Origin: Prevotella sp.
GTDB taxonomy: Bacteria > Bacteroidota > Bacteroidia > Bacteroidales > Bacteroidaceae
NCBI GenBank assembly: GCA_034101015.1
Contig: JAXEKN010000055.1
Coordinates: forward strand, 37,243 to 101,242
DNA length: 64,000 nt
Direction of reading: 5' to 3'
Shown here: one piece after another, positions 22,519 through 56,329 of the stretch
Position numbering within the stretch: position 1 is the first letter of the stretch
How the letters are laid out: every line of letters begins with the position of its first letter
Position numbers and translations under genes: made by a program
Notes under the pieces: model-generated
Told to the model about the DNA's origin: nothing
Database searches by the model: none
The model's input: the letters and a program-made list of their open reading frames with translations, nothing else

Positions 22519-22551
22519 AATAATAATGTATTAATAGTGAATGATGATTTA

Positions 22552-22590
22552 TAAAAAGAATGGGACTACATTGATTGCAATCCCATTCTC
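22552..22590 (-). terminator. Intrinsic terminator after the 783-aa gene
   Basis: GAATGGGA/TCCCATTC stem with an adjacent A-run. Confidence 0.65.
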
Positions 22591-22635
22591 TTATTTATAG
22601 GATAATCTAACTAAAGCGTCTCAAACAATGGAGAA

Positions 22636-24987: not shown

Positions 24988-25111
24988 AATCAAATGTTTT
25001 AAAAGTTAATGTATTAATATTTAAGTGTTATTATCAAATTCACGTGGCAAAATTACATAAAATTATTTAGAACACAAAACATTTTTGTGAAAAAGTGATG
25101 AAAATAAGCAA

Positions 25112-25165
25112 GAAAAAGAATACTGCCGTGCAGATTGGCCTAAAAAAGACGCTCTGCACGGCAGT
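25112..25165 (-). terminator. Terminator/hairpin after the large Omp28-domain gene
   Basis: 13-bp perfect inverted repeat ACTGCCGTGCAGA (25122-25134) / TCTGCACGGCAGT (25153-25165). Confidence 0.75.
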
Positions 25166-25195
25166 TAAATAATAAGAGAGAAATATTATAAATGA

Positions 25196-28100: not shown

Positions 28101-28894
28101 TAGAGCACACCCGACACCCACTTGCCGTTGGGGCTGACGCATATACCGTCGAGTCCATAAACATTGTCGTGTTTCTGAGTATAAGGGAGTTTCTTCGTGT
28201 CGTCGAAGTCAAAGACGATGGGGTCGAATGTCTCCGTCTGGCGGTCATAGAGGAAATAGACCACGTCCTGCGGATAGCTGAAGCTGATACATCCCGTGAT
28301 GTAGCGCGCGTCGGCTGACAGACCCGTGAATCGTGTCATCAGCTGGTACTCGCCCGACAGGTCTTTCTGCGGGATGTTGGGAGTGCTGATCACTTTTCCC
28401 GTCGTAAGGTCCCACATCGTCGGCACCTCAAAGAGCATGTTGGAGTTGATGCCGCATGTACCCACGGCATACTTGCCGTCGGGAGTGACAGCATTGATGC
28501 GTCCGTTCTCGCATCCCTCGGGCAGCGACACCTTGGTCCACTCCTTCGTGGCGGTGTTCCATGTGGCGGGATAACCCTGATATGAGCCGACAACCATCTG
28601 TCCGTCGTCAGTCACGTCGCCAGCGTTGCTGACGATGACACCGTCACCATCGGCGAGGTTGATGGTCTCCTTGGTTTGCAGATTGATGAGCTTGGGGAAG
28701 GCATCCTGGTCGTTGGCATTCGGACCGTATGCTATGGCCCATTTGCCATTGTCCGACATTGCACGGAATGTCGAGCCGTCACTCATCGTGTAGGTGGTCA
28801 GTTGGGCACTGGCATTTTGAGCCGCCATACCCAAAGTCGAAAAAAGACATGCCACAAGCATGCAGATTTTCATAGTAATTCCGTTTCTCAGCAT
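25196..28894 (-). CDS. Large T9SS cargo: beta-propeller-like N-terminus, two Ig-like domains, cleaved-adhesin-like domain, Omp28-related domain (CxxC), C-terminal sorting domain
   Basis: xSxDGKyAVG propeller repeats; NDWMVCPQI...FSFKGQS...KKVYIAFVN adhesin-like motif; VVLEEMTGQGCQNCPLG; GEILNVAR; tail TYNVGGR...VKKGNKAKKTIVE. Confidence 0.8.
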   Translation of the reverse strand: MLRNGITMKICMLVACLFSTLGMAAQNASAQLTTYTMSDGSTFRAMSDNGKWAIAYGPNANDQDAFPKLINLQTKETINLADGDGVIVSNAGDVTDDGQMVVGSYQGYPATWNTATKEWTKVSLPEGCENGRINAVTPDGKYAVGTCGINSNMLFEVPTMWDLTTGKVISTPNIPQKDLSGEYQLMTRFTGLSADARYITGCISFSYPQDVVYFLYDRQTETFDPIVFDFDDTKKLPYTQKHDNVYGLDGICVSPNGKWVSGVLYTMNDERAPFRYNTETKEMEYYLDSEDIDKGCVSIDNKGTVYAATPAVSPSRSLYVRHNGYWYGLDEILSQVYGINYYTHTGYDATGLAISVAADCKSMVSIAYINTENYHLTVPETFGSVCEKVDLLKKFSITPMNGATLSKISSISLTFSRNVEVIGDMSGIAVKDAEGNVVKNAIKFEVNANNSKIVNIGFRTFSLEEGKEYTLVIPAGAICLKGDTGRSNSEITVKYKGYGSKDLTMTGVSPENGSMMGQFDMTTSPVVFSFDTEVAVASGAKAYLYKVGEDEPQCELSILSGKTSETYKQVMVYPVATQLLYKGTNYRVVLPAGAVTDLSGSCKNTECSVEYEGVYERTIQGDDNNIIFEDFSGGVNNMLLYDGDQKKPTSAMSEWGFEKNMPWIHGADDDYSNTCAISHSMYMPTGKSNDWMVCPQITVPDKNTVLSFKGQSYLSTKKDILKVIVYESDDVINELDADIVAKMRTDGDVVFNEQLFPGEYENTLDGDWTDYTVDLAKYAGKKVYIAFVNENTNQSAIFVTDIAVKRMMDVTISLSGVETSQVNGTSQKVKGTATIANETKTYQKIAVKLIDSEGNVIEEVGKDNVEMKKGDTFDFDFTKEIALATGKSNTFAVQAVLNDGETSYQMDVTIKNLLFQTEKKVVLEEMTGQGCQNCPLGHLALEKLESVYGEKVIPLCYHTYTGDNLESGMTSYVQSFLGLNAAPSATIHRYAGAYSPMTSITNQGEVDYVFSTSNQILWLERVGNIMSNAAEADLDITASYDAATDKLSIPVTLRPALDIDNTTIGLFCVVTEDNLTGYQQNNLYNINDDDLGEWQAGGIYGKSVAYPYTFNDVARALYPANNYLGQTGLLPNTMKSGETYTATISFGVKENAQYVNDINNCKVTVMAINTTTGEILNVARAKVVDSTGIEGIEMDSEDGNGPTHTYNVGGRAADKGLVIVKKGNKAKKTIVE

Positions 28895-29055
28895 AGTATT
28901 ATTACTTAATAAAATTAAAATCTTCGGCAAAGTTACACAATAAATATTTATTTTTGCTTGTTTTATTGCTTTTTCTAAGAAAATAAAGCATTATTTAATA
29001 GAAATTTCGTAATTTTGCAGCAAAAACATAACGAAATGCGTTAATTCAATTAATT

Positions 29056-29600: not shown

Positions 29601-31283
29601 ATGGGAATAACACCATTCGCCTTTAGGACTTTTGGCTTTATGCTTGCGGGACTTGTGCTTTCTTCCTCTGCCTTGGCACAGGAAGGGCAGAAGAGCGACC
29701 AAGTGGTGGTGCACGGAAGCATACAGAGCGACATCCTCTTACCACAAGAGGACAATAAGATAGGTACCGGCACCTATAAGGACGACGTGCTGACCAATAC
29801 ATACGCCGACCTCAGCGTGGCATACAAGCAGTTTGAGGTGGGCGGACGGTTCGAGTTTCTCGAACATCCCCTCCCAGGATTTGAGAACGACTTCAAGGGT
29901 TGGGGTGTGCCGCATTTCTATGCCAAGTATAACCCCTGTGCCGAACTGGAGGTTACATTGGGAGATTTTTACGACCAGTTTGGCAGTGGTTTCATATTCC
30001 GCTCCTATGAGGAGCGCAGCCTTGGAATTGACAATTCCGTCAGGGGAGTGCGCATCGCAGCCACCCCGCTGAAGGGAGTGAGATTCAAGTTTATCGAAGG
30101 CGTGCAGCGCCGCTATTGGGACTGGGACACCGACTCATGGATAACGGGTACTGACCTTGAGGTCAACCTCGACCAATACAGTCAGAAGATGCGCGACAAT
30201 AACATCACATGGATGGTAGGCGGCTCATACGTTCTGCTCAACTATGACAAGGACAAGCAGATACTCGTCCCCGGCACCAACTATGAGCTTAATATGCCAT
30301 CGAATGTGCATGCCTTCGACCTCCGTTCGAATCTCACCATGGGCAACTATAACATCCTTGCCGAATACGCATGGCGCTCACAAGACCCGTCGTTCGACAA
30401 TGGTTATATCTATCGCCGCGGTTCAGCCGTGATGCTCTCGGCGTCATATTCGTCGCGCGGCATGAGTGCCCTCATTCAGGCCAAGCGCAGCGAGAACATG
30501 TCATTCCGCTCCCAGCGTTCCGTCAATGGCATCTCGGCATTCCTCAACAACATGCCCGCATTCGCCTACCAGCATACCTACGCCCTGCCTTCGCTCTATC
30601 CCTATGCCACACAGGCGGCTCCCGGAGAATGGGCATTCCAGGGAGAGTTTGGATATAACTTCAAGCGCAAGACTCCTCTCGGCGGTAAGTACGGTACGAA
30701 GATGAAACTTAATATCAGCCATATCCGCGGATTGCAGAAGACACCGGTTGAGCCTGTCAACGGCACACTGATGGGCACCGACGGCTATGAGACGAGTTTC
30801 TTCAAGATGGGCAAGCTCTACTATCAGGACATCAACGTGCAGATGGAGAAGAAGCTCTCGAAGAGTTTCAAGCTCAACCTCATGTATATGAACCAGCAAT
30901 ACGACAAGACTGTCATTGAGGGTGAGGGCGGCATGATCAAGTCGAATATCGCCGTGGCTGAGGGAAAGTACCAGTTTAACAAAAAATACACGTTGAGAGG
31001 CGAGGTGCAGTATCTATGGACAAGCCAGGACCAGGGCGACTGGGCATACGGACTGCTCGAACTGTCTGCCCTGCCTTATCTGATGTTTACAGTCAGCGAC
31101 ATGTGGAACACAGGCGAGACCGACCTGCATTATTATATGGGCAGTGTGACAGCCACCTATAAGGCCCACCGCCTGATGGTGGGCTACGGTCGCACTCGCG
31201 CTGGCTACAACTGCTCCGGCGGAGTATGTCGCTATGTTCCTGCAAGCAAGGGTCTCAACGTATCGTATAATTTCACATTCTAA
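29601..31283 (+). CDS. Outer-membrane beta-barrel protein, DUF6029-like, with a C-terminal Cys pair
   Basis: Signal peptide; alternating beta-strand pattern; FGSGFIFRSYEERSLGIDNS; tail RTRAGYNCSGGVCRYVPASKGLNVSYNFTF ending in an aromatic residue. Confidence 0.75.
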   Translation: MGITPFAFRTFGFMLAGLVLSSSALAQEGQKSDQVVVHGSIQSDILLPQEDNKIGTGTYKDDVLTNTYADLSVAYKQFEVGGRFEFLEHPLPGFENDFKGWGVPHFYAKYNPCAELEVTLGDFYDQFGSGFIFRSYEERSLGIDNSVRGVRIAATPLKGVRFKFIEGVQRRYWDWDTDSWITGTDLEVNLDQYSQKMRDNNITWMVGGSYVLLNYDKDKQILVPGTNYELNMPSNVHAFDLRSNLTMGNYNILAEYAWRSQDPSFDNGYIYRRGSAVMLSASYSSRGMSALIQAKRSENMSFRSQRSVNGISAFLNNMPAFAYQHTYALPSLYPYATQAAPGEWAFQGEFGYNFKRKTPLGGKYGTKMKLNISHIRGLQKTPVEPVNGTLMGTDGYETSFFKMGKLYYQDINVQMEKKLSKSFKLNLMYMNQQYDKTVIEGEGGMIKSNIAVAEGKYQFNKKYTLRGEVQYLWTSQDQGDWAYGLLELSALPYLMFTVSDMWNTGETDLHYYMGSVTATYKAHRLMVGYGRTRAGYNCSGGVCRYVPASKGLNVSYNFTF

Positions 31284-31298
31284 CCAATTTTGTTATAT

Positions 31299-32087
31299 AT
31301 GAAAACAAGCAAGATAATCCTCTCTCTCGCCCTTGCCGCCACCGCCCTTGGCTTCACAGCCTGCGACGAAGTCGATGAGGCCGACCGCTTCAAGGAACTG
31401 GGAAAGATTGAGAGCAAGCGCAATGTGCTCATTGAGGACTTCACCGGACAGATGTGTACCAACTGTCCCGACGGACACAGACTTATATCAACACTACAGG
31501 AGCAATATGGCGAGAATATTATTGCCGTGGGCATTCATGCTGGCAGTTTTGGTATAGCAGAGAATTCCATGCCTGGTGTTATAGGACTTATGCGACCCGA
31601 GGGTGACGAATATGCCAAGAAATTCGGGGTTGAGTCATATCCTTCAGGTATCATAAACCGCAATACCACTACACTTAAATATACAGAATGGGCAGCTTCT
31701 GTACGTTCAGAGATGGAGCGAGAGTCCTACCTGAATATCCTATTATCTGCAAAGGTGGATAATGGAAAGATTGTCATTTACTCCGAATTGCAACCTGCCA
31801 AAGACATCAAAGGCAAACTCCAAGTATGGATTACAGAGAGCAATATAGTAACGCTACAAGTGGATAATGGCAAATATCTTATGGATTATGTCCACAACCA
31901 TGTATATCGCGCCTCTGTAAATGGAACATGGGGTGAGGACGTGAGTCTTAAGGCTAATGTCTTCAATAACTCCACACATGAGATTGAAGTGAGAGACGGG
32001 TGGAATGTGGATAACTTGTCGGTTGTGGCTTTCGTATATAACGACAACGATGGAGTTTGTCAAGCCGTGGAGTGCAAGGTTGAATAA
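31299..32087 (+). CDS. Omp28-family lipoprotein (thioredoxin-like CxxC)
   Basis: Lipobox FTAC; VLIEDFTGQMCTNCPDG; YPSGIINR; HNHVYR; LSVVAFVYN. Confidence 0.85.
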   Translation: MKTSKIILSLALAATALGFTACDEVDEADRFKELGKIESKRNVLIEDFTGQMCTNCPDGHRLISTLQEQYGENIIAVGIHAGSFGIAENSMPGVIGLMRPEGDEYAKKFGVESYPSGIINRNTTTLKYTEWAASVRSEMERESYLNILLSAKVDNGKIVIYSELQPAKDIKGKLQVWITESNIVTLQVDNGKYLMDYVHNHVYRASVNGTWGEDVSLKANVFNNSTHEIEVRDGWNVDNLSVVAFVYNDNDGVCQAVECKVE

Positions 32088-34320: not shown

Positions 34321-35874
34321 TTAAAAACCATTGTTCTGGGTCAATACTCCATTGCTCTTGTCAATCTCGCTTTGTGGGATAGGCAGGAGATAATCACGTG
34401 AGTCATTGAAGTTGCGACCTTTCTGCACGTCATACTTCTCGGCATAGGCGCGCATCACCTCTCCGAAGCGATGCTGACGCATCAGGTCGTCACGGCGCCA
34501 TCCTTCCATAGCCAGTTCGACACGGCGTTCATGCCAGATAATCTTTTCAAGTGCATCCTTGGATGTCTCTGTGATGTCGGGCAGTGAGGCGGCAGTCGTG
34601 GGTGGGATATATGCCTGCATATCCTTGCGCGGGTCCATTGGGTTGGTGTTGCGGGCACGCTCGCGCACCTGGTTAAGGTATTTAAGAGCTTCTTGCGACT
34701 TGCCGTTTTCATTGAGGGCCTCAGCATAGAGAAGGAGCACGTCGGCATATCTGATGAGTCGGATGTTATAGCTGATCATCCACACGTCTTCACCAGCCTT
34801 ATCGGCTATGGGCACGGTCATCTTGTAATCATGGAATCCCGTGGCCGACTGATGGTTGTCCTGACACTGGGTGTCGCCGATGTATCTGTCGCCTGTGCGT
34901 GTGAAGACGTAGGTCTGACGAGGGTCGTCAACGTCGTAGGCATCAAACAAGTCTGTTGTAGGCACATGGAAACCGTATCCCTGATAACCTGGAACATCAC
35001 GCGAGGTGAAGAAGTGGGGCACATTAGTTCCCGTGGCTATGGTCTTGTCGTAGATCTTGTTGGGGATTTCAAAGATGGACTCAGAACTGTTCTCATATTC
35101 CTTACGCCAGTTCATGCCGTAGTCAGGCAGGAGTGAGTAGTCCTTGTCCAGCTCAACGATCTCGTGGAGCACGGTTTCTGCCTTCGCATAGTCGTTGATG
35201 AACATATATGTCTTGGCGAGCATGGTCTTAGCGAAACCGCGGGTTGCCCTGTATTTGTCGGCTTCCGGGTATAGAGCCTTTGCCGGCAGTTCCTTTGCGT
35301 CGTTGAGGTCCTTCACGATCTGTGCATACACCTCGTCGGCAGTGGCGCGTGGGGTAGAGAGCACCTGTTCGGGAGTCATCGGCTCAGTGATGAGAGGCAC
35401 TCCTCCGAAGGTGGTGACCAAGCAGTAGTAGCCGAATCCGCGCAGGGCTTTTGCCTCATTGACATATCTCTGTATGATATTCTTGTCGCCCTGTGCATTA
35501 GGTGCATAATGGATCACCTCATTACAGCGGTTGACAAGCGAGTATAGGATGTTCCATCTCTTTCCCACCTGCTCGTTGTTGGTGTAGATGGTGAAGTTTT
35601 GCAGTTCCATGATGGCTGGTTGGTCGCCGTCGGTAGAGCCCTTGAGGGCGTCGTCGGTGGAGCAGTCGCCCAGTATATAGTGGTTGAGAGCATACTCGTT
35701 CCATGTCTGGCGTAGTTGCAGGTAGGCACCGGTAAGTGCCTGTTCTATCTGGCTCTCAGTCTGATAGAAGTTATCTGTTGTTGTTTTTGCGTACGTCGGT
35801 TCGTCGAGGTCGCAACTGGTCATCGAGCCACATAGTGCGAGGCTGAGGATGCCATAAAATATCTTTTTGTTCAT
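34321..35874 (-). CDS. SusD/RagB family glycan-binding lipoprotein
   Basis: Lipobox MTSC; EAKALRG.YY.LV..FGGVP; IRYADVLLLYAEALNE; ERRVELAMEG.R..DL.R; PIPQSEID. Confidence 0.95.
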   Translation of the reverse strand: MNKKIFYGILSLALCGSMTSCDLDEPTYAKTTTDNFYQTESQIEQALTGAYLQLRQTWNEYALNHYILGDCSTDDALKGSTDGDQPAIMELQNFTIYTNNEQVGKRWNILYSLVNRCNEVIHYAPNAQGDKNIIQRYVNEAKALRGFGYYCLVTTFGGVPLITEPMTPEQVLSTPRATADEVYAQIVKDLNDAKELPAKALYPEADKYRATRGFAKTMLAKTYMFINDYAKAETVLHEIVELDKDYSLLPDYGMNWRKEYENSSESIFEIPNKIYDKTIATGTNVPHFFTSRDVPGYQGYGFHVPTTDLFDAYDVDDPRQTYVFTRTGDRYIGDTQCQDNHQSATGFHDYKMTVPIADKAGEDVWMISYNIRLIRYADVLLLYAEALNENGKSQEALKYLNQVRERARNTNPMDPRKDMQAYIPPTTAASLPDITETSKDALEKIIWHERRVELAMEGWRRDDLMRQHRFGEVMRAYAEKYDVQKGRNFNDSRDYLLPIPQSEIDKSNGVLTQNNGF

Positions 35875-35907: not shown

Positions 35908-38900
35908 TTAGAAAGTGAGGTTCACGCCAAACATATATGTTCTTGACGAAGGATATCTGGTGTTGTCGTAACCCATGTTAAGAGGACTGTTGGAGCCCAA
36001 GTCGGGGTCGAGACCGCTATATCCAGTGATGGTGAAGAGGTTCTGTGCTGACATATAGATGCGGCAGTTCTTGACATATTGCAGGGCCTTGATCCACTTG
36101 CCTGGCAGAGTATAGCCAATCTGCAGGTTTTGCAGCCTGAGGTAGCTGCCGTCCTCCACCATGAACGACGATGTGCGGAAGTTCTGGTTGTCGTTCTCAG
36201 TGGTGATGCGTGGATAAACGGCGTTGTCACCTTCCTTGCGCCATGCTTTGGTGTATGCGTCGGCAAGCGCGTTCTGATATCCAGGAGTACCGAGTGTACC
36301 CTTAGATGAATTGTAGATGTCATTGCCGATAGTACCCTGGAATGCCATTGTGATGTCAAGTCCCTTCCATTCTGCTCCAAGGTTGAAACCGAAGATCAGG
36401 TCTGGGTTGGGGTCGCCGATAAATGTTCGGTCATTGTCGTTGAGCTCGCCTTCTTCAGTCAGTTTGGCAAACTTGAAGTCACCTGGTTTGGCATGGGGCT
36501 GAATCTTTGTTCCGTTCTTGTCAACGTATGAGTCAATCTCCTGTTGGTTTTGGAAGATGCCTATCTGCTTGAATCCATAGAATCGTCCGATAGGACCGCC
36601 TTCGTATGTACGGCTGACATTGCCAGTGAGATATTCACCGTTGAGTTTGGTGACCTTCGTCTTATATGTTGACAGGTTCAAGCCGATATTGTAGTTCACC
36701 TTGCCGATGTTGTTGCGGTAGTTGGCCACAAAGTCGAAACCAGTGTTGCGCAGGTCGCCGGCATTGAAGAATGGGTCATTGACATAACCGCTGAATGACG
36801 GTATTGGTCGCTGCAGGAGCATGTCCTTGGTGTTCTTGACATAGAAGTCAAAGCTCATGTCGAGGGCATTGTGGAAGAGAGTGACGTCGATACCTATATT
36901 GGTCTGCTGGCTGGTCTCCCATTTGATGTCGGGATTACCGTTGTATGTAGGCACATATCCGGTGTGGAAACCATTGCCGAAGTACCACTGCTTCTCATTG
37001 TTGGTGCCGATGAGTGTGAGAGGAGCGTTGGCGTCGATGCGCTGGTTACCGTTCTGTCCCCATCCGGCTCTTACCTTCACGTTGTCCACCACCTTGGAGA
37101 TGCTTGAGTTTTGGAAGAACTTTTCGTTGCTCAGTCTCCATCCCAATGAGAATGAGGGGAAGTAGCCCCATCTGTTGTTCTTGGCGAAGCGTGATGAGCC
37201 GTCGGCACGGAAACTGGCGGTGAGCAGGTATCTGTCGTCGAATGAGTAGTTCACACGTGCTATGTATGAGAGCATGGAAGTGGTTTGCTTGGGTCCTGAC
37301 ACCTGGTCGCCCACGGTGCCGGCATCAAGTACGCGGTATGCTTCGTCGTTGCCTAATGCTCCACGCTTGAAGGCGTTGATGCCCTCTGATGTGTTCTTCT
37401 CGTAGGTCATGGCTCCCATCAGGTCAAGACGATGCTTGCCGAAAGTGTGGTTGTAGTTGAGTCGCTGCTCCACGAGATAATTCTGCACCAGTCCTGAGTT
37501 GTTGGTCATCTGTGTCTCCGTGTTGTATTTGCTTTCACGATTGCCAAGCATGTCGTCTGAGAAGATGGCCTCATAGATTGGCTTGAATCCGTAGAATGTG
37601 TCATGGTTTCGCTCAAAGCTGAACTGCACGCGGTATGAGAAGTCCTTTGTGAAGTTGATCTTTGCAAACAGGTTGCCAAAGACATTGAAGAGGTCGTTGT
37701 GGCGGTCGTTGAGCTTCAGCACCGATACGGGGTTGGGGTCAAATGACCATTCCGTGGGTGCCCACTTGTTGTATTCATAGTTGGCTGACGATGGGTCAAC
37801 GAGGGGATTGATGACCGGTGTGAACGGGTCGGCCTTCAGTATGAAGTCGAATGAGGGCAGGCTGTTGGCATCTCTTTTCTTCATCTTGGCGATGTTGACC
37901 ACTCCACCCACGGTGAGATATTTGTTGATGTCATATTCATGGCTCAGGCGTGCGGTGATACGCTTGAAGTCGGTCTCGATGATTGTACCCTGCTCGTCCA
38001 CGTAGCCCAAACTCAGTGAGGTGCGTGATGTCTCGTTTCCTGTGCGTATGCCTACATTGTAGTTTTGGTTGAATGCACTTCTTGTACACTCGTCCCACCA
38101 GTTGGTGCTGTAGCCCTTTTTGTACTGGTTGGTAAACTTGGTCTTGTCGAATGTGGCGTCACCGGCAAATGCAGTGGTGATATAGTCGTAGTATTGGTCG
38201 CTGTTCATCATGTCGAGAGCCTTGTAGCTGCTGCGTACACCGATGGCTGCGTCAAACGTGACGGTAGTTGCGCCCTTCTGTCCACCCTTGGTGGTGACGA
38301 GGATGACACCGTTGGAACCTCTTGAACCATAGATGGCACATGCAGAAGCGTCCTTGAGCACCTCAATGCGCTCGATGTCCGACGGGTTGATGCTTGAGAT
38401 GTTGTCCATAAACTGCCCATCGACAACGTAGAGAGGATTACAGTCGTTGACAGTGCCCAGTCCGCGCACTCTCACCACGGCGTCAGCTCCAGGCTGTCCG
38501 GAACTTGTGCTGACAAACACACCGGCAGCCTTACCAGCCATCATGTTCGACACATTGGATGTGGCATAGTTCTTGAAGTCCTTCTCGCTCATTGAGGAGA
38601 GAGAGCCGGTGAGGTCACTCTTGCGCTGCGTACCATAACCCACTACCACGATTTCCTCTATCTCATTGTCCGACTTCATCTTCACGTCACACCTTCCATT
38701 GGCATCAGCCTTGACAGTGAGAGTGACATAGCCTACGTATGACACTTGCAGTTCATTGCCCTGGGCCTTCAGCGTGAAGTTGCCGTCGAAGTCCGTTATT
38801 GTACCATTGGATGAACCTACCTCCTTGACAGTAGCGCCGATAAGCGGTTCTCCTGTAGCACCGTCGGTGACGGTACCGGTGATTGTCTTACCCTGCTGTG

Positions 38901-38958
38901 CGAGAGCCACAGTAGCGATGATAAGGGTAAAGATGCTGATAAAAAATCTCTTAAACAT
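35908..38958 (-). CDS. SusC/RagA TonB-dependent receptor
   Basis: VVVGYGTQRK, NPLYVVDG, IEVLKDASACAIYGSRGSNGVILVTTK, KWETSQQ, YPSSRTYMFGVNLTF. Confidence 0.97.
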   Translation of the reverse strand: MFKRFFISIFTLIIATVALAQQGKTITGTVTDGATGEPLIGATVKEVGSSNGTITDFDGNFTLKAQGNELQVSYVGYVTLTVKADANGRCDVKMKSDNEIEEIVVVGYGTQRKSDLTGSLSSMSEKDFKNYATSNVSNMMAGKAAGVFVSTSSGQPGADAVVRVRGLGTVNDCNPLYVVDGQFMDNISSINPSDIERIEVLKDASACAIYGSRGSNGVILVTTKGGQKGATTVTFDAAIGVRSSYKALDMMNSDQYYDYITTAFAGDATFDKTKFTNQYKKGYSTNWWDECTRSAFNQNYNVGIRTGNETSRTSLSLGYVDEQGTIIETDFKRITARLSHEYDINKYLTVGGVVNIAKMKKRDANSLPSFDFILKADPFTPVINPLVDPSSANYEYNKWAPTEWSFDPNPVSVLKLNDRHNDLFNVFGNLFAKINFTKDFSYRVQFSFERNHDTFYGFKPIYEAIFSDDMLGNRESKYNTETQMTNNSGLVQNYLVEQRLNYNHTFGKHRLDLMGAMTYEKNTSEGINAFKRGALGNDEAYRVLDAGTVGDQVSGPKQTTSMLSYIARVNYSFDDRYLLTASFRADGSSRFAKNNRWGYFPSFSLGWRLSNEKFFQNSSISKVVDNVKVRAGWGQNGNQRIDANAPLTLIGTNNEKQWYFGNGFHTGYVPTYNGNPDIKWETSQQTNIGIDVTLFHNALDMSFDFYVKNTKDMLLQRPIPSFSGYVNDPFFNAGDLRNTGFDFVANYRNNIGKVNYNIGLNLSTYKTKVTKLNGEYLTGNVSRTYEGGPIGRFYGFKQIGIFQNQQEIDSYVDKNGTKIQPHAKPGDFKFAKLTEEGELNDNDRTFIGDPNPDLIFGFNLGAEWKGLDITMAFQGTIGNDIYNSSKGTLGTPGYQNALADAYTKAWRKEGDNAVYPRITTENDNQNFRTSSFMVEDGSYLRLQNLQIGYTLPGKWIKALQYVKNCRIYMSAQNLFTITGYSGLDPDLGSNSPLNMGYDNTRYPSSRTYMFGVNLTF

Positions 38959-38979: not shown

Positions 38980-40716
38980 TTATTTGTATGAAATGATTGT
39001 TTTTTCTCCTGCTATTATCTTGCCGTCCTGCAGTTTCAGCGGTGTACCTTCAGGTAGTGCATATACCACCATTGCCTGCTTGGCCGCGATGTTGATCTTG
39101 CTGCCGTTTTTCACTCCGCGTGCTATATATTTCTTTGTCACGATGTCGAAGAGGTCCACATTTCCGTCGGCCATGTCGATAGTGACTTGCTTGGCATCGT
39201 CGAAGGGATTATAATATAGGTAGCAAGGATAGGTGCGGTCGGCATAGAAGTCAGTGGCATTGCAGTCAAGTCGCAGTATGCCCTCCACATCAGTCTTGTT
39301 GACGATGGCGCCGAGAATACCCACTGGCGATGTGCTGTAGAGGCTCATCATGCTCTCCGTCGGGTTGCCTTCGATCCATTTCGGTCCGTCGCCAATAGCC
39401 ACTGGGCTGACACCCTTCAGTTCGGGTTTGCCATAGTCGTCCACCTTTCTCAGTCCCTCGTATGCCACGTTGTTGTCTGTGAGGTCGCGCAGTTCAGGAG
39501 CCCACTGGTGCTTTTCGTCGATACATCCGGGGAAGAAGAGTCGGCATGCGCTGGCATTGTTGAGCATCCACTTGCCTATGGCAGCGGCATATTGCGGTTG
39601 GTATTTCACCATCGGGACGAACGGCCAAGCCGGTTTGATACTGTTCATGAGGAAGGCATATCCGCCGAGGTCAGTGATGCTGCCCTGGAGTCCGCTCACG
39701 TCATAGTCGCCCCATTTGCCCACGATGATACCCCATCCTGTGCGTCCTGTCTCGCTCTTGCAGCCGTCAAACACCCAGTTGAGCAGTTTGGTCACGTCAT
39801 ATTGCTTGCCTTCGGCAGCGTTCAGATAGGCTGCGGTATATACTCCGAGCGGCAGGAGAGCCTCGTAGAAACGGCTTTCCTTCTGTGCGAGCAGAGCCTC
39901 GATGGCACTTTCGCTATGGCTGAGATAGCGCTGGTCGCCGAATTTCCTGTAGGCATTGAGCAATACATAGGCATGACCTCCTGCTGCATCCTGCTGGTAG
40001 GGGATATGATTGCGTCCGCCCTTCATCTGCCCATAGTCAAAATATGAATAGTCGTAATTGCCGTTGAGCACAGAGTCGGCCTTGGTGAACTGTTCTGCTA
40101 TCGTGTGCATGATTTCGTCAGCACCGTCAACACCGGGGAACACATCGCTCACGGCATAGAAGAGTGCGTTGGGCAGCACGTCATACCACCAGTCGCGGCC
40201 ATATCCACCGCCTAAGCCTCCCACCTTGGACACGGTATTGTTCATCATGATGTTCCATCCATTGTCCCTGTTGAAGAAGTTCTGTATCATCTTCACATAG
40301 TTGCGGCCGTCCTGATTGGTCTTGTCTATGCCCACCAGTCCTGCACCGAGAAGGGCTGCAAGCGAGTTGAGCGACTCGTGAAACTCGCCGTTGTTGTGGT
40401 TGGGTCCCTGGCGAATGTCGCACATGGCAGTGTATAGACCGAATGTCTCCTGATTGACGTTGCGGCGTGCATTGTCGGCCCAGATCAGTGGTCCTGCCTT
40501 GCCCTTGTTGTCCCAGTTGAAGACGTAGGCGTCGAAGTCAAGGGCTTTCTGTCGCCAGTCAAGCATCTCGTATGTGGAAGGCATATCGGGCATGGAGTCG
40601 ATACGTGAGATTGACACCTGCTGTATGGCCTCGCCATAGTTGTCGCCTTCTCCGGAGCATGATATCATGGCAGCCGAAGCTACGCATGTCATTGCTGAAA
40701 GAATGTATTTATTCAT
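38980..40716 (-). CDS. Uncharacterised PUL lipoprotein; candidate glycoside hydrolase/lyase of unassigned family
   Basis: Lipobox ISC; aromatic- and acid-rich motifs (FHESLN, WWYDVLPN, QQDAAGG, FYEALLP, YEGLRK); I recognise no CAZy signature. Confidence 0.6.
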   Translation of the reverse strand: MNKYILSAMTCVASAAMISCSGEGDNYGEAIQQVSISRIDSMPDMPSTYEMLDWRQKALDFDAYVFNWDNKGKAGPLIWADNARRNVNQETFGLYTAMCDIRQGPNHNNGEFHESLNSLAALLGAGLVGIDKTNQDGRNYVKMIQNFFNRDNGWNIMMNNTVSKVGGLGGGYGRDWWYDVLPNALFYAVSDVFPGVDGADEIMHTIAEQFTKADSVLNGNYDYSYFDYGQMKGGRNHIPYQQDAAGGHAYVLLNAYRKFGDQRYLSHSESAIEALLAQKESRFYEALLPLGVYTAAYLNAAEGKQYDVTKLLNWVFDGCKSETGRTGWGIIVGKWGDYDVSGLQGSITDLGGYAFLMNSIKPAWPFVPMVKYQPQYAAAIGKWMLNNASACRLFFPGCIDEKHQWAPELRDLTDNNVAYEGLRKVDDYGKPELKGVSPVAIGDGPKWIEGNPTESMMSLYSTSPVGILGAIVNKTDVEGILRLDCNATDFYADRTYPCYLYYNPFDDAKQVTIDMADGNVDLFDIVTKKYIARGVKNGSKINIAAKQAMVVYALPEGTPLKLQDGKIIAGEKTIISYK

Positions 40717-40727: not shown

Positions 40728-41978
40728 TTATTTTGAAAGTTTGTCTGATTGTTTTGTTATGTTTTTCGCCAAAGGATAGGCAAGGGTTTGGAGTGCTGCC
40801 ACGATGATGAGTGCATATTTCAGTGCAAAGTCTTCTGATACGCAGTAGGCAAGAAGGATGAATAGTCCCAGTCCGAGAAACCTGCCCACAAACATGCCCA
40901 CCTCATGAGTCATGATATATGTGTATTCATTGCGCTTCTCAATCTTGGCCACCACATCTATCGTCCTCATCATCACCGGGAAGTAGGCGAGGTCAAAGAG
41001 CGGTTGGAAAATCACCTTGCACAATACGAATGCAATCACTCCCGCAGCCGAGAAGAGTATGCCGTTGAACAATGTTCCGATGAAGAACACCAGCACGCTG
41101 CCGAGGAATATCCACAGACGATGCTCCGGGCGTGCCACACGGCCAAGTATATACACCAATATGGCTGTCAATGCTCCGCTGATGCCCTGTATGGCACCAA
41201 GAGCCCCTTCGTCGCCTACAAACTTCATCACGAGTATGGCGGGAGCCGTGACAAGGAATCCCTGCACCATTCCCTTGAGCGAAGCCAATGTGAGCATCTT
41301 GCGCCAAAGGACGTGAAAGTGGATATGGAAGAAACGTGTGTCTTGGGGCATCTCAAAGCGTCCATGTGACAATACCGACACGGCAAGGATGGTGGTGAGA
41401 ATCACCATTCCCATGACAATCTTGTAGCATAGTGAGGCATCAAATTGTATGCCAAGCATTTCCTTTCCGTTCATGTAGCCTATGAAGGCACCGATCACCA
41501 ATGGCACTGTGATGTTGGCTACCGAGAAGAAGAATGACTCCAGTCCGAAGAAGTAGTTGCGGTTGTCGTCATGGGTATTGTAGAGGGTGAGCAGGTAGCG
41601 GTTGGTCCAGAAGAATCCTGATGCGGCTCCAAGGAGGAAACCTGCTATGCCGAGCTCCACGATGCCCAGACCCTCAATGAGCATCATGCCTCCAAGCGAC
41701 AATCCGCTCACCAAGATGCCGGCAGCATACAACACCTTTATCTGTATCTTCTTCAGCAGCAGTCCGTTGAGCATTGACGTGGCCACTACTCCCACATACA
41801 TGGCCAACTGGTAGTAGGCCACCATAGCGGGAGCGTTTGTGCTTCGCATAACGTATGCTCCGGCGAATATCTCCACCACAGGCAGGACAAACGCATAGAT
41901 CATATTGGTCAGCAATAGCACCTTCATGTTGTGCTCCTGGCTACAGAAGAATTTGAATTCTTTAGTCAATCCTTTCAT
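40728..41978 (-). CDS. MFS transporter
   Basis: About 12 hydrophobic helices, AASGFFWTNR; no signal peptide. Confidence 0.85.
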   Translation of the reverse strand: MKGLTKEFKFFCSQEHNMKVLLLTNMIYAFVLPVVEIFAGAYVMRSTNAPAMVAYYQLAMYVGVVATSMLNGLLLKKIQIKVLYAAGILVSGLSLGGMMLIEGLGIVELGIAGFLLGAASGFFWTNRYLLTLYNTHDDNRNYFFGLESFFFSVANITVPLVIGAFIGYMNGKEMLGIQFDASLCYKIVMGMVILTTILAVSVLSHGRFEMPQDTRFFHIHFHVLWRKMLTLASLKGMVQGFLVTAPAILVMKFVGDEGALGAIQGISGALTAILVYILGRVARPEHRLWIFLGSVLVFFIGTLFNGILFSAAGVIAFVLCKVIFQPLFDLAYFPVMMRTIDVVAKIEKRNEYTYIMTHEVGMFVGRFLGLGLFILLAYCVSEDFALKYALIIVAALQTLAYPLAKNITKQSDKLSK

Positions 41979-41996: not shown

Positions 41997-43040
41997 TTAT
42001 ACGTTCAGTGTGGAAAGTATCTCATTGATGGATAGGTCTGCCTGGCATATCACCTCGTCGCTTGCACCATAATATATACGTATGGTGTCGCCATCCACAA
42101 TCTGTCCGTTGGAGAACACGACGTTGCCGAAGAAACCGGTCTGCTCGTAGGGGGCAACGGGTTCCATGATGGGCTCTTCGCTGCGTGCCAGAACCTTTGT
42201 CGGGTCGTTGAGGTCGAGGAGCATGGCTCCAAGGCAGTATCTGTTTTCCTTTGTGGCACCATGGTATATCTCCAACCATCCCTTGTCGGTCTTGACGGGT
42301 GAGCAACCGGCACCAAGGCGCGCACTGTCAAACTTGCCCTCCCTTGTGGTGGCGATACACTCATGGCGTCCCCAGTGGATGCGGTCGAAGCTCTCGGCTA
42401 TCCACATATAGTTGCCGCCTAATTCCGGACTGCTCGGACGGTGAAGCGCGAAATATTTGTCGCCTATCTTCTCGTCGAAGAGTGCGCAGTCCTTGTTGTG
42501 TGCCGGGAAGATCATTCCCTCATGCTCATAGTTGATGAAGTCCTTGGTGTGAATCATGCCCACTCCCACTGCCACTGGCGACACCTCGGTGAAGGTAAGG
42601 AAATATCCGTCGTCCATGGTTGCCACCCGACAGTCCTCTATGCCGAATGACTCTGACGGACGGCTGCCGAAGATGGGCTTGTAGCGTTCATCCTCATGGA
42701 AGTGGATGCCGTCCTCGCTAAAGGCAAGACGTAGATAGGATAGGGTGGTGAGATAGTCCTGCCCCTTGTATTTTATCACTCGCGGGTCGCTGGCGTCAAG
42801 GTCTTTGTCGTCCTCGTTAAACTCCATCACCTTGAATCCCTCCGGGGTGTAGATGGGAAAGGAGATCTTGCCCTTCTGTTGCTTTGGTCTCTCGGCTACA
42901 CGTATCACGAGTCCTATACGACCGTCCATTTTGAATACTCCGGGATTCAGCAAGCAGGCTATCTCCATTCCGTCAATTGCCGGTGTGAAGTCTTTCGGTG
43001 ACAGAATAGGATTCTGCTGGTTTCTTTTGGCTATGTCCAT
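41997..43040 (-). CDS. Glycoside hydrolase family 130 (beta-mannoside phosphorylase-type), cytoplasmic
   Basis: NPGVF, GIEDCRV, NKDCALF, LHRP, IYHGA, NVVFSNG, YYGASD. Confidence 0.92.
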   Translation of the reverse strand: MDIAKRNQQNPILSPKDFTPAIDGMEIACLLNPGVFKMDGRIGLVIRVAERPKQQKGKISFPIYTPEGFKVMEFNEDDKDLDASDPRVIKYKGQDYLTTLSYLRLAFSEDGIHFHEDERYKPIFGSRPSESFGIEDCRVATMDDGYFLTFTEVSPVAVGVGMIHTKDFINYEHEGMIFPAHNKDCALFDEKIGDKYFALHRPSSPELGGNYMWIAESFDRIHWGRHECIATTREGKFDSARLGAGCSPVKTDKGWLEIYHGATKENRYCLGAMLLDLNDPTKVLARSEEPIMEPVAPYEQTGFFGNVVFSNGQIVDGDTIRIYYGASDEVICQADLSINEILSTLNV

Positions 43041-50311: not shown

Positions 50312-52654
50312 TTAATATACGAAGATGCGGATATGCTTGACGCTGCCTGGCGCACCCTGTTCGGCGCGCGGCAGATAGTCGAGAGCCTTGACGGTCTGCT
50401 CACCGCCGAGGTCTATGACAAGGAGATGGGGGAAGTCCGCGCCACGCTGGGTCTGCCAATAGGTTGACTCCTGAAGGTCGAACACCTTGTCGCCGGTATG
50501 GTTGCCCACCTCATTCTCACTGTCAGCATACTTCACAGTCCACGGCTCACGACTGATACGCTTGCCATTGGCATCCTGAAGATAAATCTCAGCCACAGCC
50601 ACCTGGTCGGACGAATGGGCGGAGCGACACTCGATAGCCACATACCTACCCTTTGCGGGAGAGGCGAAGGAAACAGTCTGCCATCCGTTGCCAGCCTTCA
50701 GGTTGGTGTCAGCCACGGGCGAGGCGGAGTTGAGGTCAGGACGGTCGCCGGGGTTGTTGTGCTTGTTGCTCTTCTCAAGGTTGAGCTTGTCGAGTTCGGG
50801 CTTGTTCTGGCAATGCGCCACAGCCTTACCCCTTGGCCCGACGATGTCGAGAACCACCACCTCGTTCTTTCCCTTCTTCAGCCAGCATCCGGGGACATAG
50901 AGCGTCTGTTGGGGACCGATGTTCCAGAATCGTCCGAGAGCATGGCCGTTGACATATACCATACCCTTGCCGAAAGCCTCCATATTGATAAACGTGTCGC
51001 CCACCTTCTTTAAGTCAAACCAGCCACGATAGTAGCCGATGGTATTGTTGAGAGGAGAGGGATTGAAGATGGGATTGGACGGGCGCGGGGCGAAAGCCTT
51101 CACGGCAGTCTGATAGTCGCAGGGCAGGGTGGAGATAGTCCAGTTCTTAAGGTCGAAAGTCATGGCGTGACCTTCGGATTCCGCCGATAGCGTGACATTT
51201 GAAGTGATACCCTTGTAGTCCTTTATGGCGCGTCCGAAGTTGATGCGTCCCATAGCCTCGATGAGGATGGTGAGTCGCTGTCCGCTCTTGACGGCAGGCA
51301 GCATGATGCTCTTCTCATTCTTCACGCGGTCGATCTTGCCGATATACTTGCCGTCGATAAACACCTGTGCGAAGTCATGACAGTCATTGAGAGTGAGCAG
51401 CGAGGACGAGCTGACTGCGGGCAGGGTGGCCTCATAGATGAGCGAGCCCCATCCCATGTCGAGATCCTCCATGCACTTCACGTCGCGCGACTTGACCGTC
51501 TTGTCAATGCCACAGGCGATGGGTGCATACTCCGTGAGCTTGAACTCAGGCACGGAGATGATAGGCATTGGAGCCTTTGGCACCGACGGCATCTTTTTGC
51601 CATCGTAATACTTCTCCATGGTGCGGCGCAAGGTCCAGTATTTCTCCGTCGGCTGTCCCCACTCATTGATGGGAGCGTCATAGTCGTATGATGTCACGTC
51701 GGGAGCGAAGCCCGGACTGTTGGCACCCGCCCAATGGCCGAACGACGTGCCGCCGTGAGTCATATAGAGCGAGAAGCTGATACCCTTGGAGAGCATCTCG
51801 TCGATGCCCGCCACCATATCGTCGGCAGGACGGGTCTCATGGCGCGCGCCCCACTTGTCGAACCATCCGCTCCAGAACTCCGAGCACATCAGTGGCGACT
51901 CCGGGCGCAGTTCCTTGAGACGGCGGAACTGATTGTCGATATTGGCACCCGTGCCGAAGTTCATCGTCCATATCAGGTCGTCGAGACCATTGCGTGTGAA
52001 ATTGCTTGCCCAGTCGCACTGAAACAAGGTGACCTTGTCGAATCCCGACTCACGCACGATGTCGCGAATCTCCGAGACGTAGGGCTTGTCCGTGCCATAC
52101 GAGCCGTATTCGTTCTCCACCTGCACCATGATAATCGGTCCGCCGTTTTCGATGGTGAGCGAGGCGAGTTGCTTGCCCACCTCCTTCTCAAACAGGCGCA
52201 CACGCTCCATGAAGTAGGGGTCGCGCTCGCGCAGACGGATGTCTTTCTTCTTCAACAGCCACCATGGCAGGCCGCCCATCTCCCATTCTGCGCAAACATA
52301 CGGGCCTGGGCGCACGATGACGTACATGCCATTTTTCTGGGCCAAGCGGCAAAACTCCGCCACGTCGTTCTGACCGGTGAAGTCATACACGCCCTCCTTC
52401 TGCTCATGGATATTCCAGAAGACATACAGGCAGAGGGTGTTCATGCCAAGAGCCTTGCACATCTTGATGCGATGTTCCCAATAAGGGCGGGGAATACGCG
52501 GATAATGCACCTCGGCAGCCTTCACCACAAACGGTTTGCCGTCGAGCATGAAGGTGTTCTTGCCAGCAGTAAACACCCCAGAGGCCATCGCCTCATTGGG
52601 CAATAAAAGAGCCAACAACAGGGCCAAAATGATATTTCCAAATGTCTTTCTCAT
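50312..52654 (-). CDS. GH35 beta-galactosidase with C-terminal F5/8 (CBM32-like) domain
   Basis: EVHYPRIP, VRPGPYVCAEWEMGGLP, VQVENEYG, SEFWSGWFDKWG, YMTHGGTSFG, TSYDYDAP; ESTYW...IDLG. Confidence 0.95.
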   Translation of the reverse strand: MRKTFGNIILALLLALLLPNEAMASGVFTAGKNTFMLDGKPFVVKAAEVHYPRIPRPYWEHRIKMCKALGMNTLCLYVFWNIHEQKEGVYDFTGQNDVAEFCRLAQKNGMYVIVRPGPYVCAEWEMGGLPWWLLKKKDIRLRERDPYFMERVRLFEKEVGKQLASLTIENGGPIIMVQVENEYGSYGTDKPYVSEIRDIVRESGFDKVTLFQCDWASNFTRNGLDDLIWTMNFGTGANIDNQFRRLKELRPESPLMCSEFWSGWFDKWGARHETRPADDMVAGIDEMLSKGISFSLYMTHGGTSFGHWAGANSPGFAPDVTSYDYDAPINEWGQPTEKYWTLRRTMEKYYDGKKMPSVPKAPMPIISVPEFKLTEYAPIACGIDKTVKSRDVKCMEDLDMGWGSLIYEATLPAVSSSSLLTLNDCHDFAQVFIDGKYIGKIDRVKNEKSIMLPAVKSGQRLTILIEAMGRINFGRAIKDYKGITSNVTLSAESEGHAMTFDLKNWTISTLPCDYQTAVKAFAPRPSNPIFNPSPLNNTIGYYRGWFDLKKVGDTFINMEAFGKGMVYVNGHALGRFWNIGPQQTLYVPGCWLKKGKNEVVVLDIVGPRGKAVAHCQNKPELDKLNLEKSNKHNNPGDRPDLNSASPVADTNLKAGNGWQTVSFASPAKGRYVAIECRSAHSSDQVAVAEIYLQDANGKRISREPWTVKYADSENEVGNHTGDKVFDLQESTYWQTQRGADFPHLLVIDLGGEQTVKALDYLPRAEQGAPGSVKHIRIFVY

Positions 52655-52750
52655 ATATTTCTTTTTATTATTAATACGCAAAGGTATCGTTTTTTTCCCT
52701 ATTCATTTATCCTTTTTTCTGATAATATAGGGAAAAATAGGACTAATTAA

Positions 52751-53917
52751 CTATTGAACCATCCAAGAATCGCGCCATTCGATAAATGGAACTCCATTAT
52801 TGTCGAAGTCGATGGGCAGCCACACATACCGCCCGTCGGAAGGATGCTTCGGTCGCCAGATGTCGGCCATGAAGATATATCCGTCCTTATATGGCAGGAC
52901 AAATGTTGACTGTCCGCCGAAGGTGATGTTGGCCTTTGGACCACGGCATGGGTTGGGATGCTGCTTCCACGGTCCCCAGATGCTTGGCGCCGAGAACATC
53001 CGGGCCTCGTTGGGGTCCCAGCCTGTGCATCCACTGGTAATCATCCAGTAGGTGTTGCCACGGCGGAACACGGCGGGAGCCTCGTTCTGTCCGCCGGGAG
53101 CCACGCGGGTGTAACGTCCGGTGTGGGCAGTGAAGTCATCGTTGAGTTCGGCGATATGCAATGTCAGGTTGTCCTCCGACGAGAAGATATGATAAGCCCT
53201 GCCGTCGGTATCCACGAAGAGGGTCATGTCGCGCGCCATCTGTCCTGCTGGCAGGTTATGTCCGTCAACCGTGCGTGCGGTGAGGTCGCGCTTCAGGAAC
53301 AATCCTTGTCGAATGGCCTTGCGCCATGTGGGTGTCCACCAGTCCTTATAGTTGTTGGCATTGAGAGTGTCGAGACTCTTGATGTCGGCATCAGAAAACT
53401 CCAATGGATAGAATCCGGGATTGGCCCTGCCGGAGCGCAGGAAGCGGAACGGTCCCTTGGGACTGTCGGACACTGCCACACCATATCGGGCCTGCCAGTA
53501 GCCCTCGCCCTTGAGCTCAAGGTGGAACCACATCACAAACTTCTTGGTCTTGGGATTATAGATCACCTTCGGGCGTTCGAGAATACATCCGCGCTCGATG
53601 TCGTGTCCCTTCTCATCGACAACACTAAGGGCAACACCCTCATAACGCCAGTCGGTGAGATTCTTCGACGAATAGCATGTCACGCCCACGTAAGCCGAAC
53701 AAGTGGTGTCGGCCTTGTGCTCACCATACCAATAATAGGTATTGCCATGCTTCATAACACCTCCACCGTGGGCATTGATATGCTCGCCACGATTGTCGGG
53801 CCATAATTCCCCGGGGCGGATAATGCCCTTCCCAAACATCACGCTTGGGAAGGACACAACGAGTAATGAAATAGTGACAATAAAGTCTTTTACAAACCTT
53901 TTATCAAGTGTTACCAT
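52751..53917 (-). CDS. GH43 family, subfamily 24-like (exo-beta-1,3-galactanase type)
   Basis: INAHGGG, YYWYGE, ERPKVIYN..TKKFVMWFH, ARDMTLFVD, EAPA, FGGQSTF, YVWLP. Confidence 0.85.
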   Translation of the reverse strand: MVTLDKRFVKDFIVTISLLVVSFPSVMFGKGIIRPGELWPDNRGEHINAHGGGVMKHGNTYYWYGEHKADTTCSAYVGVTCYSSKNLTDWRYEGVALSVVDEKGHDIERGCILERPKVIYNPKTKKFVMWFHLELKGEGYWQARYGVAVSDSPKGPFRFLRSGRANPGFYPLEFSDADIKSLDTLNANNYKDWWTPTWRKAIRQGLFLKRDLTARTVDGHNLPAGQMARDMTLFVDTDGRAYHIFSSEDNLTLHIAELNDDFTAHTGRYTRVAPGGQNEAPAVFRRGNTYWMITSGCTGWDPNEARMFSAPSIWGPWKQHPNPCRGPKANITFGGQSTFVLPYKDGYIFMADIWRPKHPSDGRYVWLPIDFDNNGVPFIEWRDSWMVQ

Positions 53918-53955
53918 ATAAATAATAATATTGTGTGTTGTTCGTAATGAATTGA

Positions 53956-56316: not shown

Positions 56317-56329
56317 ACTCTATTATATC

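Follow-up and report, generated by a model that had tools for sequence, protein, structure and literature searches.

A candidate new glycoside hydrolase family linked to β-1,2-mannoside phosphorylases in a five-gene polysaccharide utilisation locus of Prevotella

Introduction

Six-hairpin endo-β-1,2-glucanases of the GH144 and GH162 types feed a cytoplasmic β-1,2-oligoglucan phosphorylase. The only β-1,2-mannosidases known to us belong to glycoside hydrolase (GH) family 130, and we know of no six-hairpin family with that activity. In the present work we analysed a stretch of 64,000 nucleotides of Prevotella sp. DNA (assembly GCA_034101015.1, contig JAXEKN010000055.1; the whole stretch is referred to as the window), in which a gene for a GH130 enzyme heads a five-gene operon whose third gene encodes a 578-amino-acid lipoprotein of an unnamed family, the target of this study. 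We propose, with a probability of about 0.55, that this protein is a periplasmic hydrolase which trims imported β-1,2-manno-oligosaccharides to substrates of the partner phosphorylase encoded in the same operon.

The closest described partner of the system is Uhgb_MS, an inverting phosphorylase specific for β-1,2-mannosides with a degree of polymerisation (DP) of 2-3, which also has a weak GDP-mannose transferase side activity (PMC12814180). It was published from an 'unknown human gut bacterium', an identical genomic sequence not having been found at that time, and was reported to be 27-fold more abundant in metagenomes of inflammatory bowel disease (IBD) (PMC12814180). The known sources of β-1,2-mannan are the phosphopeptidomannan of Candida and the reserve mannans of trypanosomatids (PMC4264767, PMC7660257). 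The neighbouring gene that belongs to the target family is discussed neither in the Uhgb_MS paper (PMC12814180) nor in the paper on GH130 diversity (PMC7660257).

A first-pass annotation of the window had described the lipoprotein as a Trp/Tyr- and Asp/Glu-rich protein with barrel-like motifs, occupying the depolymerase slot of a minimal polysaccharide utilisation locus (PUL), and had suggested that it was an (α/α)-barrel enzyme of a new carbohydrate-active enzyme (CAZyme) family acting on a β-mannose-containing glycan. That description stood up in part in our analysis, whereas the depolymerase slot and the surface location that it implied did not.

Results

The GH130 partner and the conservation of the gene order

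The GH130 protein of the window matched the Uhgb_MS structures (PDB 9EQQ, 9ERG and 9ERH) over the full length (348 aa) with 574 bits and 70% identity; it kept the Uhgb_MS residues P206, N211 and R242, and the segments SPELGGNY and AR(L/V)GAG were conserved. No signal peptide is present at its N-terminus (MDIAKRNQQNP), which places the enzyme in the cytoplasm. With an orthologue of Uhgb_MS as the partner, the link to β-mannosides that had been annotated was narrowed to β-1,2-mannosides. In a tblastn search of gut metagenome contigs (ENA), Uhgb_MS itself was identical in 348 of 348 positions to the product of the first gene of such a cassette (contigs L001/L002:7690-8733), the third gene of which corresponds to P0032 (WP_410523246.1, Phocaeicola coprocola), 76% identical to the target. 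Since the identical gene heads the same cassette, Uhgb_MS is the operon partner of the target family, and because of the 100% identity its source and operon can now be named as P. coprocola-type.

The five genes of the window lie on the minus strand in the order GH130, major facilitator superfamily (MFS) transporter, target, SusC and SusD, with intergenic gaps of 11-33 nt (Table 1). As annotated before, a Pfam scan found no further glycanase in the operon. Neighbours of the target gene were recorded by tblastn in 85 loci with sufficient flanking sequence (P. coprocola-type contigs, two Cytophagales plasmids and 80 species genomes), and the same order and strand were observed, with GH130 present in 75 loci, MFS in 82, SusC in 81 and SusD in 72; the missing neighbours fall at contig ends, except in locus L053. 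The co-occurrence with GH130, which the first-pass annotation had proposed as a check, was thus confirmed. Bacteroidales, Marinilabiliales and Cytophagales all had the cassette, in some cases on plasmids (Aureibacter and Persicobacter). The genomes bearing it included Bacteroides xylanisolvens XB1A, Parabacteroides, Alistipes, Dysgonomonas, Barnesiella and Paludibacter, as well as Lentimicrobium, Prolixibacteraceae, Cyclobacteriaceae and Ohtaekwangia. Across the loci the target remained 57-76% identical while SusC and SusD fell to about 30%, a pattern of sequence conservation that would be expected of an enzyme.

Distant members of the family (35-42% identity, no signal peptide, other phyla) were located beside GH130 genes and ABC (ATP-binding cassette) importers in five of seven contexts. 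For those GH130 neighbours that were compared with characterised enzymes, which are only some of them, one scored 410 bits to Teth514_1788/1789, one was 44% identical to Uhgb_MS, a third was nearest to the BT3780-type β-1,2-mannosidases and a fourth was weakly nearest to β-1,2-mannobiose phosphorylases (90 bits). Judged by these comparisons, the family is associated specifically with β-1,2-mannoside enzymes, across phyla and compartments, wherever a neighbour could be assigned. Neither of two hypothetical proteins of the Thermoanaerobacter cluster, Teth514_1791 and Teth514_1785, which are possible family members, was listed in the supplement of the Thermoanaerobacter paper.

Two of the non-Bacteroidota loci with cytoplasmic members (L087 and L089) also contained genes for DUF1861 proteins, a 785-aa protein with no Pfam domain and a DUF5696 protein, and L087 had genes for URO-D-like and glycyl-radical enzymes in addition. 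These extra genes may be further parts of β-1,2-mannoside metabolism.

Sequence family and predicted fold

The open reading frame (ORF) of the target was real, with an ATG start and a lipobox as annotated. The N-terminus reads MNKYILSAMTCVASAAMISC followed by SGEG, the signal peptide ending at the lipobox Cys20. More than 3,300 homologues, labelled 'hypothetical', were found in a 90%-identity database, and 1,018 representatives at E<=1e-3, including 355 at E<=1e-30, in a 50%-identity library. A pattern scan with one genome per species gave at least 569 confirmed family loci. Multidomain relatives carry F5/8-type-C, Laminin_G_3 (LamG), PKD and SLH domains and tails of the type IX secretion system (T9SS).

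Searches were made against Pfam (2025), NCBIfam (June 2026) and PDB sequences (2026), and with Foldseek against PDB entries to April 2026; a set of 56 family sequences served as the profile. The target as a single sequence had no match in NCBIfam and none among PDB sequences at E<=10, and its only Pfam signal was C5-epim_C, which scored 16 bits (cut-off 23.3) and was limited to one helix hairpin (aa 244-279). The profile gave no significant match to PDB sequences, the best being a LanC-like protein (E 0.19). Across the 56 members, Pfam at E<=1 returned only sub-threshold C5-epim_C and LANC_like signals, the former in 33 of the 56 with a best E of 8.5e-4. A search of the accessible literature found no description of the target family or of a GH130-MFS-target-SusC-SusD PUL. 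Because Pfam, NCBIfam, PDB and Foldseek gave no family-level match, the annotation of the target as a candidate new CAZyme family was upheld, and, judged against these sequences and folds and the literature, we regard it as a candidate new glycoside hydrolase family.

AlphaFold2 modelling from the 56-sequence alignment gave a confident structure for the whole target (predicted local distance difference test, pLDDT, 94.0; predicted template-modelling score, pTM, 0.92), consisting of about 12 helices (aa 54-471) followed by a β-sandwich (aa 472-576), and for the barrel alone (pLDDT 94.5, pTM 0.94), in agreement with the (α/α)-barrel guessed earlier. The best whole-chain Foldseek matches were GH127/GH146 β-L-arabinofuranosidases (PDB 7EXW, E 2e-7; also 4QJY, 8K7Y and 8QF8), with template-modelling (TM) scores of 0.3-0.45, about 10% identity and root-mean-square deviations of 9-15 Å. 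With the barrel alone, matches were obtained to GH116, YPO2471, cellobiose 2-epimerase, mannose isomerase, GH76, GH125, GH127, GH9, GH88 and GH78, all with TM<=0.53 and E of 1e-4 or weaker. There was thus no family-level structural relative in the PDB for either the full model or the barrel alone.

Residue conservation was assessed over 133 representatives, the 56-sequence set, the paralogues of window type (A-type) and of the long type described below (B-type), and distant members. The invariant or near-invariant positions were E114, D131, W177, Y178, Y284, E285, N299, W328, F355, N358, Y372, E420, D443, Y460, D489 and N503. They include the invariant carboxylates E114, E285, E420, D443 and D489 and the aromatic residues W177, Y178, Y284, W328, Y372 and Y460; D489, N503 and P504 are the invariants of the C-terminal β-sandwich. 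All five motifs noted in the first-pass annotation were present, namely FHESLN (aa 112), WWYDVLPN (aa 176), QQDAAGG (aa 241), FYEALLP (aa 283) and YEGLRK (aa 419), and four of them hold family-invariant residues (E114; W177/Y178; Y284/E285; Y419/E420). The composition (W 2.2%, Y 6.2%, D 7.6%, E 4.0%) agreed with a Trp/Tyr/Asp-rich protein, not with a Glu-rich one, because Glu made up only 4.0%. In the AlphaFold2 model most of the invariant residues are found where a barrel helix begins or immediately ahead of it, the positions at which six-hairpin enzymes form their active sites, and from these helix-end positions the conserved residues would be expected to cluster in a pocket. The invariant carboxylates and aromatic residues in the sequences fit a glycosidase, and this, with the paralogues fused to LamG, F5/8-type-C, PKD and T9SS domains, bore out the enzyme-like features that had been annotated.

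H113, R325 and D81 were specific to the window-type copy. No His was invariant across the family, H113 being conserved only in the A-type and replaced by Ala in the B-type. Enzymes of the AGE superfamily use a catalytic His pair, and an AGE-type epimerase was rejected since no such pair was conserved. The mechanism of GH127 depends on a Cys nucleophile and a Cys3-Glu zinc site; it was likewise rejected, because the target family has no invariant Cys apart from that of the lipobox and these sites cannot be shared. None of the 56 members matched the Pfam family Glyco_hydro_127 at E<=1.

An (α/α)6 epimerase, isomerase or lyase, similar to AGE or to glucuronyl C5-epimerase, which remodels an imported sugar, would agree with the C5-epim_C signal in more than half of the members, with automatic UniRef names that include 'D-glucuronyl C5-epimerase' and 'linalool dehydratase', and with the appearance of cellobiose 2-epimerase and mannose isomerase alongside glycosidases in the barrel-only search. 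We consider such a role very unlikely, since the C5-epim_C match is confined to a single hairpin under the cut-off, the family lacks an invariant His, the cassette contains no uronate-processing genes, and the T9SS-secreted or SLH-anchored relatives bear lectin-like modules typical of depolymerases.

Paralogues and cellular location

In 34 of 81 loci, ORF clustering detected a second family member downstream of SusD, and in 43 loci SusD was followed by a LamG lipoprotein of about 356 aa (examples downstream of SusD are L025:16316-17407 and L025:17450-20695). In Bacteroidota, acidic residues after the lipobox Cys act as a surface-export signal, while a plain signal peptide without this Cys implies a periplasmic location. 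The LamG lipoproteins begin with C-S-D-D-D, C-G-D-D-D or C-K-E-E-D and carry, on average, 2.31 acidic residues between +1 and +5. The long second copies (B-type; about 1,035-1,080 aa, sharing 33-36% identity with the window type) consist of a plain signal peptide, a predicted catalytic region, PKD and Laminin_G_3 domains and a type IX secretion tail; by this arrangement of modules they are predicted to be extracellular. Both the LamG lipoprotein and the T9SS paralogue have been lost from the PULs of gut Bacteroides, Phocaeicola and Prevotella.

The A-type copies, encoded between MFS and SusC, showed a mean of 0.66 acidic residues in positions +1 to +5, with none or one in 59 of 64, and 16 of 80 had no lipobox at all. 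Close Prevotella-type orthologues (L010/L024, L013, L019 and L044) have plain signal peptides. Because the A-type copies mostly lack the acidic signal and these relatives have plain signal peptides, a periplasmic trimming role is the likelier one, and the sequence signals suggest that the target itself probably faces the periplasm. We concluded that the depolymerase slot of the ancestral PUL belonged to the type IX-secreted paralogue, which was lost from the minimal PUL of the window. The slot that the first-pass annotation had given to the target, and a surface location, were consequently judged unsupported, the fuller PULs having the secreted paralogue after SusD together with the surface LamG lipoprotein.

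The target could nonetheless be a surface-exposed endo-β-1,2-mannanase, that is, the depolymerase feeding SusC/SusD, and three observations are in line with this. No other exported enzyme is encoded in the operon; E and D, at +3 and +5 from the lipidated Cys, make the target more acidic than 59 of the 64 A-type copies; and in gut-type minimal PULs without the T9SS paralogue the remaining copy could have taken over its function. We regard this as unlikely, albeit worth serious attention, in view of the weak acidity of most A-type orthologues, the Cys-less signal peptides of the close Prevotella-type ones, the existence of a separate extracellular paralogue after SusD and LamG in the 34 loci, and the position of the target gene, which is between MFS and SusC and not after SusD.

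A non-catalytic function, as a glycan-binding lipoprotein similar to surface glycan-binding proteins (SGBPs) or as a structural accessory of SusCD, was also weighed, given that the lipoprotein is encoded beside SusC and that its catalysis is only predicted. This appeared most improbable. An SGBP would not be expected to show the upstream position relative to SusC, the high conservation compared with SusC/SusD, and the export signal, ambiguous here and absent in most orthologues, that we found. Moreover, the carboxylates are invariant in cytoplasmic, periplasmic and secreted members, the cytoplasmic homologues adjoin ABC importers, and the SGBP position is already held by the dedicated LamG surface lipoprotein in the 43 loci.

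In six loci, including the P. coprocola-type contigs (L001:16476-18902), the LamG and B-type genes were replaced by a gene after SusD for an 808-aa secreted protein with no Pfam domain. The possibility that it was a hidden paralogue of the target was rejected on an hhalign probability of 0.3%.

Operon, regulator and other features of the window

The features of the target locus are shown in Table 1. As expected of a PUL, Pfam identified adjacent SusC-like and SusD-like genes, a linked regulator of the hybrid two-component system type (HTCS-type) and a GH130 CAZyme. The MFS protein is presumed to be the inner-membrane importer of the di- or trisaccharide.

Table 1. Features of the target gene and its neighbourhood, in window coordinates
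Feature	Position	Strand	Evidence
Target gene, lipoprotein of an unnamed family (window-type or A-type)	38980..40716	-	ORF, ATG start, 578 aa
Target signal peptide and lipobox, aa 1-20, Cys20, then SGEGD	40657..40716	-	Sequence, lipobox scan
Predicted (α/α)6-barrel domain, aa ~30-471	39304..40629	-	AlphaFold2 secondary structure, conservation, Foldseek
Predicted C-terminal β-sandwich domain, aa ~472-578	38983..39303	-	AlphaFold2 strands aa 472-576, conservation
GH130 subfamily 4, Uhgb_MS orthologue	41997..43040	-	Pfam PF04041, E 1e-45; PDB 9EQQ match
MFS transporter	40728..41978	-	Pfam MFS_1 31.3 bits, slightly under cut-off; same-position orthologue in 82/85 loci
SusC-like TonB-dependent outer-membrane transporter	35908..38958	-	Pfam CarbopepD_reg_2, Plug, TonB_dep_Rec_b-barrel
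SusD-like outer-membrane glycan-binding lipoprotein	34321..35874	-	Pfam SusD_RagB E 3e-43, SusD-like_3
HTCS-type regulator: Reg_prop/Y_Y_Y sensor, receiver, AraC helix-turn-helix	43310..47233	+, divergent	Pfam
Hairpin, perfect 16-bp stem, between SusD and the convergent PAP2 gene, ~190 nt past the SusD stop codon	34093..34129		Consensus scan only

Neither HisKA nor HATPase_c was detected by Pfam in the regulator. Its H-box (aa ~798-815) reads FFANVSSQF, as compared with FFTNIAHEF in most cassette-linked orthologues, and the usual His is absent, so that the kinase H-box appears degenerate by sequence. The phospho-acceptor His has likewise been lost in the Prevotella-type relatives L007, L010, L013, L024 and L050, and the regulators without it may form a clade of kinase-dead sensors.

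The hairpin downstream of SusD is a possible terminator of the operon and would be bidirectional if so. The scan for promoters and terminators, with 18 sites against 11.6 expected, says little for Bacteroidota. The window itself stems from a bacterium of the pig gut. Pieces of the target gene (39204-39363, 39580-39836 and 40105-40584) were covered at low depth by contigs from four pig-gut metatranscriptomes, as were parts of GH130, MFS and SusC. This coverage is compatible with transcription of the target operon, and supports it weakly because DNA carry-over is possible.

Other parts of the window contained further observations. A single 1,000-aa ORF (13429-16431, plus strand) combines ECF sigma-70 regions 2 and 4 (aa 11-157) with a complete GH115 α-glucuronidase (aa 329-992), and must be a genuine fusion or else the product of a mechanical merge of two genes. 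A second PUL-like cluster (50312-63933, minus strand) encodes GH35, GH43, a 1,194-aa Glyco_hydro_cc protein, a SusD (59884-61668), a 786-aa protein whose sole match is a weak one to ricin lectins and a 751-aa ORF with no Pfam domain, which is probably part of a SusC. Large proteins with Big_5/Omp28 domains (538, 785 and 1,244 aa), which are poorly annotated surface proteins, are encoded at 20902-28930 (minus strand) and 29601-32087 (plus strand), near genes for DUF6029 and Omp28.

Discussion

The model that we favour, at the probability given above, is one of oligosaccharide scavenging. SusC and SusD would import β-1,2-manno-oligosaccharides, either naturally short or released by other organisms, or small glycoconjugates carrying them. 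The target lipoprotein, most likely facing the periplasm, would hydrolyse these oligosaccharides to β-1,2-mannobiose and -triose, with E114, E285, E420 and D443 in the central pocket of the barrel as candidate catalytic carboxylates. The MFS permease would carry the mannobiose and -triose into the cytoplasm, where the Uhgb_MS-type GH130 would phosphorolyse them to α-mannose-1-phosphate and mannose. In the fuller PULs, the T9SS paralogue with PKD and LamG domains would depolymerise the glycan outside the cell and the surface LamG lipoprotein would bind the polymer. That the target is the founding member of a new GH family specific for β-1,2-mannosidic glycans is put forward more tentatively, at slightly less than even odds.

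Several observations weigh against the trimming role. Two distant secreted members (P0281 and P0277) have no GH130 neighbour. The two acidic residues in positions +1 to +5 of the target (CSGEGD) exceed those of most A-type copies and are ambiguous as to its location, and in Foldseek the matches to epimerases and isomerases were about as good as those to glycosidases. A gene for a GH13 α-glucosidase-like protein lies inside the PUL in nine loci and a GH97 gene adjoins the P. coprocola cassette, which hints at a heteroglycan rather than a pure β-1,2-mannan as the substrate. Finally, we know of no abundant source of β-1,2-mannan in the marine, sediment and digester habitats of the cassette.

The GH13 and GH97 genes and the many habitats without a known pure β-1,2-mannan would also agree with a hydrolase of a new family that cuts another bond, such as a decoration, a cap or a mannosyl-phosphate link, or that releases β-1,2-mannobiose from a heteroglycan or a phosphodiester-linked glycan. 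In addition, several non-Bacteroidota loci hold two or three GH130-type enzymes, which could handle all the β-1,2 bonds by themselves. On the other side, the β-1,2-specific GH130 subfamilies accompany the family at every assignable locus, and no other product of the minimal cassette could cut oligomannosides down to the DP of 2-3 accepted by Uhgb_MS (PMC12814180). Cleavage of another bond thus seemed to us rather improbable, and the trimming of β-1,2-manno-oligosaccharides was retained as the preferred role.

About 1,000 clusters at 50% identity make up a family that has no name, Pfam model or structure and is tied by strict synteny to biochemically characterised β-1,2-mannoside phosphorylases. 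If the target is a hydrolase, it would fill the missing upstream step in the catabolism of β-1,2-mannosides. If our model is correct, Uhgb_MS, over-prevalent in IBD, would gain a physiological context and a P. coprocola-type source, and the target family together with the GH130_4/_6 phosphorylases would constitute a conserved catabolic module, which takes the form of a PUL in several Bacteroidota orders and of ABC-importer loci in other phyla. The comparison of loci would then illustrate how a PUL of six to seven genes, secreted enzymes included, can be reduced to a five-gene cassette scavenging oligosaccharides, and β-1,2-mannans or -oligomannosides from yeast, protozoa or unknown microbes would be a far more widespread nutrient than recognised. 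The enzyme could also become a tool for dissecting the immunologically important β-1,2-mannans of Candida and trypanosomatids.

Among known systems, the GH130 β-1,2-mannoside enzymes (Uhgb_MS, Lin0857, Teth514_1788/1789 and BT3780) constantly accompany the family in genomes and belong to the same pathway, with substrates that are probably of the same class. They are, however, five-bladed β-propeller phosphorylases or exo-mannosidases, whereas the target has a predicted six-hairpin fold and is unrelated to them in sequence. The GH127/GH146 enzymes (HypBA1, BT3674 and BT0349; DUF1680 fold) have the same architecture of an (α/α)6 barrel and β-sandwich domain(s), but differ from the target by the low identity and poor superposition reported above. 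A six-hairpin barrel about as large as that of the target occurs in the AGE superfamily (cellobiose 2-epimerase, mannose isomerase) and in the C-terminal domain of glucuronyl C5-epimerase, with TM scores of 0.42-0.53 between AGE-superfamily and target barrels besides the weak C5-epim_C signal; in contrast to the cytoplasmic AGE epimerases, the target is exported and its relatives are fused to lectin-like or T9SS modules. Yersinia pestis YPO2471 (PDB 7TEM), likewise a putative exported protein, ranks with the best matches to the barrel (TM 0.47-0.51), but it is only 11% identical, has 405 aa and lacks the C-terminal β-sandwich.

No sequence match to the target was found for GH144 or GH162, nor did they appear among the top 50 Foldseek matches, and their sugar is glucose whereas the presumed sugar of the target is mannose. 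It is nevertheless to these systems that the proposed role would be analogous in its logic: an exported (α/α)6 enzyme that shortens a β-1,2-homoglycan for a cytoplasmic phosphorylase.

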